Shown here: positions 24,366-29,048 of the stretch, one piece after another
Layout of the letters: each line of letters starts with the position of its first letter
How positions within the stretch are numbered: position 1 is the stretch's first letter
From: an uncultured Planctomycetaceae bacterium
Lineage (GTDB): Bacteria; Planctomycetota; Planctomycetia; Planctomycetales; Planctomycetaceae
Length of the DNA stretch: 64,000 nucleotides
NCBI GenBank assembly: GCA_963813715.1
Contig: CAWFAK010000012.1
Span: 64,001 to 128,000, forward strand
Reading direction: 5' to 3'
Program-made: the position numbers and the translations under genes
The notes under the pieces: generated by a model
What the model was told of the DNA's origin: nothing
What the model saw: only the letters and a program-made list of their open reading frames with translations
The model's database searches: none

Positions 24366-24627
24366 CCGACTCACCGTTGGGGCGAGGCACGGACAAATCG
24401 GCGCAGGTTCTCAAGGAAATGCACCGGGCGACGAATAGCTCTCCAGGCGAAGCTGCGCCTGCATGACTGCTCCGCCCCAACTCCCGAACTCCCTGAGACC
24501 TTGGATGGTTAAGCCATCCGTTTGAACGGGCGCACCGAGCGAATTCCGCTCTTCTCGCGCAACTGTCGCGCGCTTAGGATCCGGCGAAGACGACACGCCC
24601 GCTGCGATTTTGAGGAGACTGCCGACC

Positions 24628-26442
24628 ATGTCCACTCCCGTGGCTCAGACAGAATCGATCCCGCAGCCCATGATTCCGGTCGCCAAGCCGCGGCCGCGGC
24701 TCCGCGTTTGGCCGGCCGTGGTCATCGCCGTTGCCTATTGGGTCGCGATCGCGACGATCGTGAAACTCGACATGGTGATCTCGCAGACCTTCTTCTCGAC
24801 AGTGATCACCAGCTTCGTCACCGGACTGGCGTTCATAGTCTGGCTTTACTCCCGCCGCGCGCTACCCGGCAAGGATCGGTTGATTCTGTTGGCCGCGCTG
24901 ATCGTTGCCACGGCACTCGTCATCGTGTTGGGCGATCCGTCGGTCGGTCCGATGGGACTGATCTTTGCCGGACCGGGAATTCTCTGCACCGCCGCCGCGG
25001 TCTGGCTGTTGATCGCCCGCAAGTGGTCGACAACCGTCATCCGCAACGGGCTGTTGGTGCTGCTGGCGTTGGTCTGGGGTCAATTTCTGGCGGTTCGTAT
25101 CAACGGCGTCGACGGACGTCAGTCCGCGTCGATTAGCCCGCGTTGGCAAAAGACGGCCGAAGACCTCTATCTGGCCGAACGCGCATCGACGTCGACCGCG
25201 GCGACGCCGGCGAACGCCGAGCCTGCTGATACACACCCGCTAACGCTGGCCTCGGGAGATTGGCCCGATTTCCGCGGCGAAAACCGGCAAGGCGAGCTCC
25301 ACGGCGTCAAAATCCCCACGGATTGGAAGGCCGCGCCGCCGAAGCTGTTGTGGAAGCAACGCATCGGCCCCGCCTGGTCGTCGTTCGTGGTGTTGGGCAA
25401 TCGGCTGTTCACGCAGGAGCAGCGCGGCAAAGATGAAGCCGTCGTCTGCCTCGACGCAGCCACCGGCAAGGAGCTGTGGGCCCACCTCAACGACGGACGC
25501 TTCTCCGACGGTCAGGCCGGCGCGGGCCCGCGGTCGAGCCCCGTCTTTGCCGACGGCCGAATTTACACAATGGGCGCCACGGGCGTCGTCAATTGCCTCG
25601 ACGCAGCGACGGGCAAGCAAATCTGGTCCAAGGACGCGGCGAAAGAGGCCGGAGCCAAAGCTCCGATGTGGGGCTTTTCCAGCTCGCCGCTCGTGACCGG
25701 CGGCATGGTCATCGTCTATGCGGGCGGACCGGGAGATAAAGGCCTCCTCGCGTATCGGACGAAAGATGGCCAACTCGCCTGGTCCGCGGCGACCGGTCCG
25801 ATCAGTTACAGCTCGGCCCAGCTCGTGAAGTTCGGCACCGAAACGCAAGTCCTCTTCCTCAGCGACAACGGCTTGATCGCCATCGATCCGGCCACCGGCA
25901 AGCAGCGGTGGAGTTACGATGCGCCTGCTCCCCAGATGTGGCGCGTCGCTCAGCCGCGACAGATCGACGGCTCGGCCATTCTCTTCGGCTCCGAGGATCT
26001 GGGTCTGGTGCGGCTCGACCTGACGCCGCACAGCGACGGCACCTGGACGACGAACGTCGCCTGGAAGTCTCAGGCCCTGCGCCCGGCGTACAACGACTTC
26101 GTCTACCAGGACGGATTCGTCTACGGCCTCGACAAGGGCCTCTTGTGCTGCGTCGACGCCAAAACGGGCGAACGGCGCTGGAAGCAGGGCCGCTACGGCT
26201 TCGGCCAGATCCTGTTGCTGGCCGATCAGAAGCTCTTGTTTGTGATTTCCGAGTACGGCAAAGGCGTGCTGGTGGTGGCCACGCCCGAGCACTTTCAGGA
26301 AGTCGGGGGCTTCGAAGCGATCAGCGGCAAAACCTGGAATCATCCGGTCATCGCCCACGGCCGCCTCTACGCCCGCAACAGCGAAGAAATCGCCTGCTAC
26401 CAGCTCGCGCCGCCCGAGACGCACACGGCACAGGCGCGCTAG
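24628..26442 (+). CDS. membrane-anchored PQQ-like/BamB-like beta-propeller repeat protein
   Basis: N-terminal TM helices; DWPDFRG; repeated CLDAATGKELW; WNHPVIAHGRLYARN. Confidence 0.85.
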   Translation: MSTPVAQTESIPQPMIPVAKPRPRLRVWPAVVIAVAYWVAIATIVKLDMVISQTFFSTVITSFVTGLAFIVWLYSRRALPGKDRLILLAALIVATALVIVLGDPSVGPMGLIFAGPGILCTAAAVWLLIARKWSTTVIRNGLLVLLALVWGQFLAVRINGVDGRQSASISPRWQKTAEDLYLAERASTSTAATPANAEPADTHPLTLASGDWPDFRGENRQGELHGVKIPTDWKAAPPKLLWKQRIGPAWSSFVVLGNRLFTQEQRGKDEAVVCLDAATGKELWAHLNDGRFSDGQAGAGPRSSPVFADGRIYTMGATGVVNCLDAATGKQIWSKDAAKEAGAKAPMWGFSSSPLVTGGMVIVYAGGPGDKGLLAYRTKDGQLAWSAATGPISYSSAQLVKFGTETQVLFLSDNGLIAIDPATGKQRWSYDAPAPQMWRVAQPRQIDGSAILFGSEDLGLVRLDLTPHSDGTWTTNVAWKSQALRPAYNDFVYQDGFVYGLDKGLLCCVDAKTGERRWKQGRYGFGQILLLADQKLLFVISEYGKGVLVVATPEHFQEVGGFEAISGKTWNHPVIAHGRLYARNSEEIACYQLAPPETHTAQAR

Positions 26443-26570
26443 GGACAGGCTCACTCCTCGGAGGGTGAAGCTATGAGGAGCGGTAAGAGGTAGGCCGAGC
26501 CGGTTGGTGGTTGTGCTTGAACGTGGTAAACGGAGTTTGTTGCCAACCGTTTCCACAAAAGGACACCGCC

Positions 26571-27591
26571 ATGAAATTTGCCGGCTGCGACCTACACAAG
26601 CAGACTATCACGATTTGCGTCGTCGACCAATTGCGGCGGGTCTTGGAGCGTCGGACCGTGCGTTGTGGCGAAGAGCGGAGCATCCTCGCATTTTTCGAGA
26701 GGCTCGGGGAGTTCGAGGCTGTCGTGGAAGCGACCGCCAGCTACGAATGGTTCGTGCGATTGATCGAGCCCGTGGCCCATCGCGTGTTGTTGGCTCACCC
26801 CAAGAAGCTGCGTGTGATTGCCGAGAGCACGCGTAAAAGCGATCGGCTCGACGCGCAAATCCTCGCGGAGTTCCTGGCCTTGGAGATGATTCCGACGTCT
26901 TACCGCGCGACTCCGCGGCAGCATGAGCATCGACGACTGGTGCGTCAGCGGGGCGGCGTTCAACGGCGATTGACCTCCGTCAAGAACCGTCTGCGCCGCA
27001 TTCTCTGCGACTACAACGCGGATCGTCCCAGTCTGTTCACCGTGGACGGGTTGGCGTATCTCGCCCAAGTGCCTCTCTTGGGAGCGGATCGGTTCGCCGT
27101 GGATCAAATGGTCGAAGAGTTGCACTTCGGGAGGCGTCAGCTGCTGGCCGTCAACGCCCGGCTGAAGGAGTTCGCCGAGGCGGCGCCGCTTTGCGAGCAG
27201 GAAAGCGCGGACGCTGTTGCGGACGATCCCCGGAGTGGGCTTCGTGACCACCGAAGTTGTGCTGGCCGAGCTGGCAGACATTGATCGCTTCGGTTCGCAA
27301 AAGCGGGTCGTCGCTTACGCAGGGCTCTCACCGGGTCAACGCGAGAGTGCGGGCAAGAGTCGGGAGCTGCACCTGGAGAAGAACGGTTCGACGCTGCTGC
27401 GCTCGACGCTGGTCGAAGCCGCCTGGCGGCTGGTTCAGCACTCGTTACGTTGGCGTCGGATTTATGAACGATTGAAGTTGCGCGTGCGTGCCAAGAAGGC
27501 GATCGTCGCCGTGGCCCGCCGGTTGTTGTGCCTGATGACAGCGATCTTGAAGACGGGCCAACCCTACTCGCTCAGCCAGCAACCGACTTAA
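26571..27591 (+). CDS. IS110 family transposase/recombinase (frameshift near 27210)
   Basis: GCDLHK, VVEAT, KSDRLDA (DEDD); TIPGVG; AYAGLSPGQRESAG with the conserved Ser; KKAIVAVARRL. Confidence 0.92.
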
Positions 27592-27649
27592 ATCCCTGAC
27601 CTTGGCAGGAGAGCACAAAACAAAACATCGATCGAAAGCGCTGCGACGA

Positions 27650-27800
27650 CCCACAGACGACCCCGCCCCCGGCCATGAAGGCGTTCCCTCAAAAGAGCGA
27701 CCTTCGAAGGGTGAATGGGGCGTCTCTCGAAAGTCGGCTTCCTGGCGACATCGACGGACCTGTTCCAGACCGTTGGTGATCCCGAATAGATGGTTGAGCG
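27650..27800 (+). ncRNA. putative bridge RNA / seekRNA (ends approximate)
   Basis: two stem-internal-loop modules whose loop segments match the target flank (CCCCGGCCA, AGGGTG) and the donor junction (GCTTC, ATAGATG). Confidence 0.72.
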
Positions 27801-27866
27801 TACCGCATCGCCCAGATCACCACTTCAAACGCAAAAACCAACCCTTGACGCTACCCTTCTCATAGA

Positions 27867-27983
27867 TGGCCGGGGCGCTCCGCGTAGCGGAAGCCCCGGA
27901 ACATCGCCGACATCATTTCGTTAGTCATGCCTCTTTGAAGTGCCAAGACGGGGGCTTCCGCGACGCGGAGCGCCCCGCCACCC
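27867..27983. repeat. REP/REPIN-like inverted repeat pair (IS target)
   Basis: (GGG)TGGCCGGGGCGCTCCGCGTAGCGGAAGCCCC and inverted copy GGGGCTTCCGCGACGCGGAGCGCCCCGCCACCC about 50 nt away. Confidence 0.75.
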
Positions 27984-28069
27984 GTCGGGACCCGGGACTG
28001 GCCGAAGACCTCCGCGCAGGCTATAGAATCTCGCCCCGTTCGGGCTGATCGCAAGGGCCGGCTATCAAC

Positions 28070-28133: not shown

Positions 28134-28796
28134 CTAGTCCTTCTTCGCGTTGTGGCTGATGGGAATCGTCACGCAGTACTTGCCGAACATGTTGATCACC
28201 AGCGTCGCCTTGTTGTCCTTGACGTCTTTGATCGTGAGCGCGAGATCGGCCTTGGGCGCGTCGGTGGCCTCTTCGAACGACGACTTCGACAACGGCTCGT
28301 TGCCGCCGCTATACACGTGCAGCTGCCAATCGTCTCCCTCGGCGTGCTTGACGCTGCAGACCAGGCAGGTAATGTCGCGTTCTTCGTCTTCGGTCTTGAA
28401 CTTCAGCTTGCGGAGCTGCTTGTCGGTCGCCGGCTTGCCGTCGACGAGCGGATTGAACTCGGGCGACATGAAGATATAGCACAGGCCGACGCCGCGGTCC
28501 TTCTCCGAGTCCTTGGTGTCGCGGTCTTCGCGAAAGCCTTTGAGCGGGACCAGGATGATGCCCTGGTGCGCGTTCGGATTGAGCAGTCCGACCGCCTTCT
28601 CCGCGTCGGGATCGACTTTGACGGGCAGGTCCTTATAGGTCTTGGTGAGTAGCTCGGTCAGCTTGGCTCCGAATTCCTTCGCGACGTCCGGCTCCATTTC
28701 CGCGAGCGGGCTGTCTTCCGCCCGGCACTTGGTGCCAGCCCACAACACGCACGCCGCCGCACACAGGAAGATCGGAATCAGCTTTCTGGCAAACAT
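28134..28796 (-). CDS. secreted hypothetical protein (paralog 1)
   Basis: signal peptide; aligns along its length with 29100..29813. Confidence 0.85.
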   Translation of the reverse strand: MFARKLIPIFLCAAACVLWAGTKCRAEDSPLAEMEPDVAKEFGAKLTELLTKTYKDLPVKVDPDAEKAVGLLNPNAHQGIILVPLKGFREDRDTKDSEKDRGVGLCYIFMSPEFNPLVDGKPATDKQLRKLKFKTEDEERDITCLVCSVKHAEGDDWQLHVYSGGNEPLSKSSFEEATDAPKADLALTIKDVKDNKATLVINMFGKYCVTIPISHNAKKD

Positions 28797-29048
28797 GCTC
28801 GTACCCTTTGGCCGCAAGGTGAGATTCGTTTGACTGCCGAGGCAAGAAATTTGACGACAGCGCCGGCGCCCGCAGTTCCTACCGCCGCCGGAGCAAATGG
28901 GTTTCAGGAAAACGGGCCGCTGGGCTGCGCGAAGTGCGCGGCTCGCGTTCCTGCCCCGCCGTGGCGGTCGTTCATTCTATGTCGCCCGCGCCGCCCTGAC
29001 CATGACGGGGCGCGCGGGGCCGCCACCGGTCCCAGGTTACAAAAGCGC

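Follow-up and report, generated by a model that had tools for sequence, protein, structure and literature searches.

Guide RNAs of the IS1111 and IS110 groups

SeekRNAs have been shown by Siddiquee et al. (2024; PMC11187229) for four members of the IS1111 group, ISEc11, ISKpn4, ISPa11 and ISPst6. As described by these authors, the elements encode a transposase of about 340 amino acids, have a long non-coding region downstream of the gene, and carry subterminal inverted repeats with short terminal extensions. In their seekRNAs the top-strand complement precedes the bottom-strand complement in the 5' to 3' direction, with an overlap of both matches at the crossover; the order of the matches is reported to be reversed between the IS1111 and IS110 types (PMC11187229). 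For 93% of the IS1111 elements in ISfinder, Durrant et al. (PMC11208160) predicted a right-end bridge RNA; many of these RNAs, according to the authors, seem to hold their donor guides in a multiloop. In the IS110 group, the bridge RNA of IS621 and ISCro4 (Durrant et al. 2024, Hiraizumi et al. 2024) has two internal loops, each with one strand per DNA strand and both including the 2-nt core; on each loop's 3' strand, extra bases beyond the 3' end of the guide match the product. In IS621 the handshake guides are described as following, on the 3' side, those guides that base-pair to the top strand (PMC11208158, PMC13626964).

The window, that is, the whole stretch of 64,000 nucleotides analysed here, contains at 26468-27868 an IS110-family, IS1111-type insertion sequence that shares with the seekRNA-encoding elements the features given for them above. 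Downstream of its gene lies the region of a predicted structured RNA of about 190 nt, the two internal loops of which very probably guide recombination to the target and to the element's own ends. Architecture and guide order match those of the published IS1111 seekRNAs and bridge RNAs, so the element is a member of an already known kind, and the concept is unchanged, such RNAs having been predicted by Durrant et al. in most IS1111 elements (PMC11208160). It differs from the four seekRNA elements in its serine motif, which is GLxPxxxxSA and not SG or TG, and in belonging to a clade known from sequence alone. Unlike in many of the predicted IS1111 RNAs, the donor loop is a plain internal loop, by way of a short outer stem.

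The two internal loops, the distribution of their strands between the two DNA strands with the core in both, and the extra product-matching bases are as in the IS621/ISCro4 RNA. Unlike in those elements, the RNA lies at the right end and not the left, and the guide order relative to the gene is reversed; in contrast to IS621, the handshake bases here come 3' of guides having the sequence of the top strand. The two arrangements are most simply reconciled by reading the opposite DNA strand, on which the element would have the guide order and handshake place of IS621, with a CA core instead of CT, and this reading fits the reversed match order of IS1111 and IS110 types described by Siddiquee et al. 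(PMC11187229).

IS621 of E. coli and ISPpu9 of Pseudomonas putida (PMC12288879) are IS110 elements that occupy a fixed point of a REP sequence in several copies per genome, as the element described here also does, with a different REP family and a host from a different phylum. Extra copies of the small-RNA gene are reported for ISPpu9 (PMC12288879); unlike in that case, we found no solo RNA copies in the genome, the eight RNA matches all lying within the eight copies of the element. Supplementary file 2 of Durrant et al. (PMC11208160) holds unnamed recombinase rows of the same clade, with at least 31 occurrences of "Planctomycetes", so these proteins are not new to the literature. A literature search for Planctomycetes, IS110 and bridge RNA together found no paper.

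The insertion sequence and its target site

The element, its ends and its neighbours are as follows.

24610-26442, + strand: gene for a 610-aa PQQ/BamB-like beta-propeller protein with N-terminal membrane segments
26463..26467, + strand: left target half GGGTG, its last two bases (TG) being the core shared with the right end of the element; precedes all eight copies
26468..27868, + strand: whole insertion sequence, 1401 bp (1400 bp where the extra A is absent)
26471..26477, + strand: left subterminal inverted repeat CTATGAG, preceded by a 3-nt terminal extension (AAG), reverse complement of 27859-27865
26571..27591, + strand: IS110-family DEDD transposase gene (PF01548, PF02371), broken by an extra A at 27202
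27859..27868, + strand: right subterminal inverted repeat CTCATAG and terminal ATG, of which TG is the core
27869..27899, + strand: right target half GCCGGGG and the REP-like hairpin opened by it
28134-28817, - strand: gene for a 227-aa protein without a Pfam match

The genome (18 contigs, 7.49 Mb) contains eight copies of the element that are about 98-100% identical. All eight start with AAGCTATGAG and finish with CTCATAGATG, and the sequence outside is unrelated from the first base. In a genome of the same genus (G002) the orthologous intergenic REP-like region, 95% identical to that of the window up to 25 nt before the junction, is free of the element and reads ...GTGAGGATGGCCTGGGCGCTCCGCGGAGCG... 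without interruption, which supports the element boundaries. The ends given in the preliminary description, 26468 and 27868, thus agree with the genomic copies and with the empty site. Subterminal inverted repeats of at least 7 bp with terminal extensions are an IS1111 trait; in the window the repeat is 7 bp long and each arm is 3 nt from its end, while in homologues it reaches 9-11 bp and both sides change together. The element also resembles IS1111 in its non-coding portions, with 277 nt downstream of the transposase gene (27592-27868) vs 103 nt upstream (26468-26570).

The eight copies share the insertion site GGGTG^GCC(G/T)(G/A)GG, the right flank being GCCGGGG in four, GCCGGGC in two, and GCTGGGG and GCCGAGG in one each. 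Empty sites have a single TG and occupied ones have a TG at either junction, as expected of a shared 2-nt core and not of a duplication. A TG core had been proposed at the outset, and it is consistent in all eight copies and, at the left junction, in 28 of 28 groups of relatives defined by their guides. Sequence-specific insertion without target duplication, with a core common to the target and the joined ends, is characteristic of IS110 elements.

The hairpin GCCGGGGCGCTCCGCnnnGCGGAAGCCCCGG adjoins six of the eight copies, and a loose pattern for it gives 55 matches genome-wide; a first REP pattern that allowed one mismatch was too loose (633 hits) and was dropped. The bare 12-mer GGGTGGCCGGGG has four unoccupied occurrences in the genome vs two for the reversed control, without enrichment, so the site is rare and not abundant. 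About 50 nt separate two REP-like elements of opposite orientation, at 27869-27899 and 27949-27986; the latter is a GGCGGGG variant and is used by none of the eight copies.

In the window the two halves of the transposase are in different frames as a result of the one extra A at 27202, a +1 frameshift; a Pfam search placed PF01548 at 26571-27284 and PF02371 at 27217-27591. The intact 339-aa frame is present in four of the eight copies, the split seen in the window in three, and further indels in one. The extra A itself occurs in four copies, namely that of the window and those at C12:9579-10978, C7:224426-225826 and C7:435600-436998 of the same genome (G000), which are at different sites. The same frame-breaking insertion at different sites implies that the defective copy itself multiplied, presumably using the enzyme and the identical RNA of intact copies. 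The element had been described as intact or recently active; with four intact copies and about 98-100% identity this holds for the family in the genome, and it fails for the frameshifted window copy. About 55 sites in the transposase gene vary among the eight copies.

The intact transposase scores 217.8 bits against NCBIfam NF033542, "IS110 family RNA-guided transposase" (cutoff 140). It has the N-terminal RuvC-like DEDD domain and the C-terminal Tnp domain with a conserved serine that are typical of IS110; D7, E53, D91, D94 and S259 are invariant in 22 relatives, and S259 aligns with the SG serine of ISCro4. The only solved structures matched were those of IS621 and ISCro4 (PDB 8wt6, 9t56), by the C-terminal half alone with E about 1e-13, so that the IS1111 branch is matched only distantly and is without a close solved structure. 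Among 8000 metagenome proteins scored, 3538 were related at E <=0.001, and the best 120 were 63-98% identical to the intact protein. The nearest named transposases found, ISHvo9, ISAtu7, IS1328 and ISMch4, are at most 36% identical, which fits the earlier suggestion of a new planctomycete member; the best hits to these four cover 84-98% of the query at 30-33% identity, their assignment to groups being presumptive. The nearest of them, ISHvo9 of Haloferax volcanii pHV4, is likewise of the IS110 family, with 33% identity over 84% of the query, and differs in its archaeal host and in that its locus (L139) has no match to the RNA model described below. Residues 210-310 of the intact transposase, taken from the L002 copy, match NCBIfam NF052498, "TIGR-Tas system RNA-guided endonuclease", weakly (25.5 bits, cutoff 100).

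Comparative structure and guides of the predicted downstream RNA

The predicted RNA and its guide strands are laid out as follows.

27629..27819, + strand: predicted bridge RNA (seekRNA) gene, with a closing helix and two modules
27655..27725, + strand: target-binding module, with outer stem 27655-65/27716-25, inner hairpin 27678-27704 and the internal loop between them
27667..27676, + strand: 5'-strand guide CCCCGGCCA, complementary to the top strand of the core and right flank
27708..27715, + strand: 3'-strand guide AGGGTG, identical to the left flank and core, then AA, the first bases of the element
27726..27798, + strand: predicted donor-binding module, with outer stem 27726-30/27794-98, hairpin 27744-27783 and the internal loop between them
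27737..27741, + strand: 5'-strand guide GCTTC, complementary to the core G and left-end AAGC; the next base, C, mismatches the core T
27786..27793, + strand: 3'-strand guide ATAGATG, identical to the right end and core, then G, the first base of the right flank

The preliminary description had read these elements from the letters, and each lies where it was placed: the outer stem GACGACCCC (27656-64) with GGGGCGTC (27717-24), the inner hairpin GAAGG (27678-82) with CCTTC (27701-05), the second-module hairpin CATCGACGG (27749-57) with CCGTTGGTG (27770-78), and the loop strands CCCCGGCCA (27667-75), AGGGTG (27708-13), GCTTC (27737-41) and ATAGATG (27786-92). It had also proposed folding 27592-27868, and this gave no signal (z = -0.68) and a minimum free energy structure without the outer stem. 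The shorter stretch 27629-27819 folds with -71.5 kcal/mol (z = -2.14; three of 200 shuffles fold as well); the fold consists of the closing helix and two stem-loops, the first of which has the internal loop that had been proposed.

The main support for the RNA structure is comparative. A scan of species-representative genomes yielded 134 encoding stretches, of which 80, mostly from Planctomycetota MAGs, were kept; their non-coding ends can be aligned. In the RNAalifold consensus of a 30-sequence alignment, 20 of 28 pairs are compensated. The structure tested was the fold of the window copy, in which the nucleotides of the guides were kept unpaired. Of 1420 cells 80.6% are paired, a share that drops to 34-42% on shifting the partners by 1-3 columns, and compensatory changes on both sides are seen in 37 of 51 pairs; derivation of the fold from one of the aligned sequences favours the first measure and affects the compensatory counts less. 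Five structure measures were reached by none of 500 shuffles. The parts of the structure fare as follows.

Outer stem, module 1: 99.7% of cells paired; compensatory changes in 5 of 10 pairs
Inner stem, module 1: compensatory changes in 8 of 8 pairs
Hairpin, module 2: compensatory changes in 12 of 13 pairs
Outer stem, module 2: compensatory changes in 3 of 5 pairs
Closing helix: 69% and 35% of cells paired in its two parts; poorly aligned

The arms of the closing helix nevertheless pair better with their own partner (-30.3 kcal/mol) than with the arms of others (-24.5 kcal/mol), a difference reached by none of 10000 permutations.

At E <=1, Rfam 15 gave no match apart from two sub-threshold microRNA hits attributable to chance. 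R1, a covariance model built from the two modules, matches 73 of the 80 clade loci, the model-building rows among them by construction; the loci without a match are L017, L033, L048, L080, L083, L084 and L090, and in L017 and L048 at least the sequence ends too near the gene to hold the RNA. With stricter filters, R1 matches three of 151 sampled Planctomycetota genomes, that of the window among them, and it has no match in the loci of ISHvo9, ISAtu7 and IS1328. Among the eight genomic copies, differences in the RNA region are confined to 27688-27692, the apical loop of the first-module hairpin, where one copy has three substitutions and another lacks 1 nt.

The aligned pairs include 162 G.U cells vs 77 A.C cells, which assigns the fold to the + strand, the same sense as the transposase gene. 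This strand bias, together with the invariant G.U pairs in the structure, bears on whether the guides might work at the level of the element's single-stranded DNA, in the manner of IS200/IS605, and not as RNA. Sequence by itself does not separate DNA from RNA, and the RNA-library contigs described below give no transcript ends. Besides the bias, what speaks against such a role is that the enzyme is a DEDD/serine protein of the IS110 family, relatives of which are described as using RNA (PMC11208160, PMC11187229), and that the guide region lies 50-240 nt inside the end and not at the cleavage site. We regard a single-stranded DNA guide as very unlikely and continue with the RNA.

Each of the four guide strings occurs once in the 267-nt non-coding end, at the place given above. 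Under a first-order Markov model of this end the expected occurrences are 0.0007 for CCCCGGCCAT, 0.03 for AGGGTG, 0.003 for ATAGATG and 0.25 for GCTTC, so chance is excluded for the first three, and GCTTC is not significant by itself. The caution with which the 5-nt GCTTC match had been put forward was therefore in place, as its mismatch with the core T at the next base also shows.

In the first loop, the 3' strand is identical to the left target half GGGTG, and the T that follows CCCCGGCCA is complementary to the A that precedes the core at the element's right end. The same relationship was sought in homologues, where junctions were located by conserved end motifs: 67 loci, own copies included, have both anchors and provide 34 distinct 5'-strand windows, 30 of them with a usable right junction. 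The longest exact match between the reverse complement of the 5' strand and the group's own core and flank averages 6.9 nt, vs 3.65 nt for the flanks of other groups, and the match over the 30 groups was reached by none of 20000 permutations, which like our other permutation tests ignore relatedness among groups. For 28 groups the junction window gives 7.0 nt, vs 3.46 for a window 20 nt further out and 3.57 for the same sense. The own right flank is best or tied in 20 of the 30 groups and matches over at least 8 nt in 15; in the other 10 another group's flank matches better, and these failures include a decayed copy (L014), apparent off-target insertions (L021, L051) and misread anchors (L035, L077). 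Nine loci lie outside both model building and the first table, and their matches are 9 nt in four, 5-6 nt in four and 4 nt in one. Examples of guides and flanks are as follows.

Window: guide CCCCGGCCA, flank TG-GCCGGGG
L016: guide CCGGGGCC, flank GGCCCCGG
L022: guide GGCGTGCCA, flank TG-GCACGCC
L059: guide CTCAAAGCC, flank GGCTTTGAG
L085: guide GACCGAAGCC, flank GGCTTCGGTC

The 3' strand behaves in the same manner towards the left flank, with a contiguous match of 5.3 nt vs 3.5 nt over 28 groups (none of 20000 permutations). Guides other than xGGGTG, with matching flanks, are found in 11 groups: the guide of L051, GCTATAGTG, matches its left flank at 9 of 9 positions, that of L040, TTACCCTG, at 8 of 9, and the L059 type has GAGCGATTG. 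Homologues with other targets and unchanged loops had been named as the finding that would overturn the guide reading; instead the loops change with the flanks on both strands. As in bridge RNAs, the loop strands are complementary to both target strands and vary with the target.

The matches could also be fossils, from a captured REP target or an old junction, or belong to a 3' UTR structure that has nothing to do with targeting. In favour of this are the many GC-rich, REP-like repeats of the genome and the partial complementarity between the two strands of the first loop. The explanation is extremely unlikely all the same, given that the guides on both sides are rewritten in step with the flanks of each lineage and that the loops are bounded by stems kept paired through compensatory changes.

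In the second module ATAGATG and the right end are invariant in relatives, so pairing with the right end can have no covariation signal. The 5' strand changes along with the left end: among 27 groups, which have G, A, C or T variants at the third position of that end, 21 carry the complementary base opposite it, the misses being L016, L027, L029, L052, L081 and L085. In 33 of 34 groups the nucleotide that follows ATAGATG is also the one that opens the right flank (G in 24, C in 8 and A in 1; L028 is the miss), which ties the second module to the target or recombination junction and upholds the initial reading of ATAGATG-G as a handshake position. The base after the AGGGTG guide corresponds to the first base of the left end of the element, which is invariant. 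The bases after the two 3' strands, AA and G, are probably handshake positions that favour the product.

These data also bear on the proposal that the RNA seeks the target only, the ends being recognised by protein through the subterminal repeats and the second module being a scaffold. The invariance of ATAGATG and the right end would fit, as would the shortness and imperfection of the left-end guide and the changing together of the two subterminal repeats, as a protein or hairpin site would change; Siddiquee et al. describe target matches, and not donor matches, in the short seekRNA (PMC11187229). Such a division of labour is nonetheless improbable: the internal loop contains 7-8 nt of identity with the right end, in the same geometry as in the target loop, the left-end guide follows four different left-end variants, and the base after ATAGATG tracks the first right-flank base, which links the module to a recombination junction. 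The reading in which the second loop guides the element's own ends is the one retained below.

Expression, proposed recombination and related loci

Eighteen RNA-labelled runs contain part of the element. In all four RNA-library runs compared, which come from four studies, single contigs span 26463 to about 27883-27904; none of these contigs has the extra A at 27202, so the intact variant is common in soil and rhizosphere samples. The contigs are compatible with transcription and are not proof of it, as such libraries can hold DNA and contigs show neither ends nor strand. Neither a joint of the right end to the left end nor RNA ends were found among the contigs of the four runs, which makes them uninformative on a circle or a processed RNA.

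A scan of 26350-28000 found no sigma-70-like promoter inside the integrated element. Over the same interval one terminator-like site was found, inside the gene, which is fewer than shuffles give. Near the right end there is one further feature.

27845..27850, + strand: TTGACG, a -35-like hexamer exactly 18 nt from the right end

All of 29 guide groups share TTGAC at exactly this distance, and joining of the ends would put GAnnCT at the -10 position. From their sequences, TTGAC and GAnnCT could make up a promoter that exists only once the circle has been excised. A circular intermediate with a promoter at its junction is a trait of the IS110 family; such a promoter is known in IS621 and reportedly exists in ISEc11. 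The window copy is 25 nt downstream of the beta-propeller gene and in the same direction, and read-through from that gene could be another source of the RNA, by analogy with the read-through supply of RNA reported for IS621.

By the precedent of the family, the RNA would be made and used by the recombinase, the guides would act as RNA, and circle formation and chemistry would follow the same pattern. The first-loop strands at 27667-75 and 27708-13 would serve as target guides, and the second-loop strands at 27737-41 and 27786-92 as guides for the joined ends of the circle (CATAGA-TG-AAGC). The RNA-loaded recombinase would bring circle and target together, with strand exchange at the shared TG, so that the intact enzyme with its RNA would join the donor CATAGATGAAGC to the target GGGTGGCCGGGG. 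The product would be an element at the foot of a REP-like hairpin, without duplication. Being frameshifted, the window copy would be mobile only with enzyme from one of the four intact copies, the RNA region of which is identical or nearly so.

We see an even chance that the clade is an uncatalogued, compact (339 aa) IS1111-type lineage that follows the two-loop plan of IS621 with the opposite DNA strand first and that has been naturally reprogrammed more than 30 times. If so, it would supply an orthogonal scaffold ready for use, and a natural collection of data on how guides relate to targets, handshake positions and the tolerance shown by the second core base among them. On our reading the element is a clean natural example of bispecific RNA-guided recombination, from a phylum for which the literature search found no paper on it. 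The comparative data, which comprise 34 different target guides and their flanks, a handshake position that covaries and the calibrated R1 model, lead to testable rules on guide length and mismatch tolerance, which could feed tool development.

Two Gimesia MAGs (L019 and L020) have unusual junctions, GGG-TG-AAAC on the left and AGA-TA-AGCCCGA on the right. Their top-strand target guide specifies TA and their left-end guide TT, and GGTGAGCCCGA and GGTAAGCCCGA are both present as empty sites (26 matches vs 11 for the reversed control). From junctions, guides and empty sites together, the second core base seems not to be strictly matched in that lineage.

In L071 and L065, which are from the same MAG, a second partial 3' end of the element follows the right end (from 2948 and 2949 onward, respectively). 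In L071 it begins right after the DNA encoding ATAGATG and is repeated at least twice; in L065 it begins right after the DNA encoding the left-target guide and AATG. The guide-coding DNA of these two loci seems to have been used as a pseudo-site for recombination.
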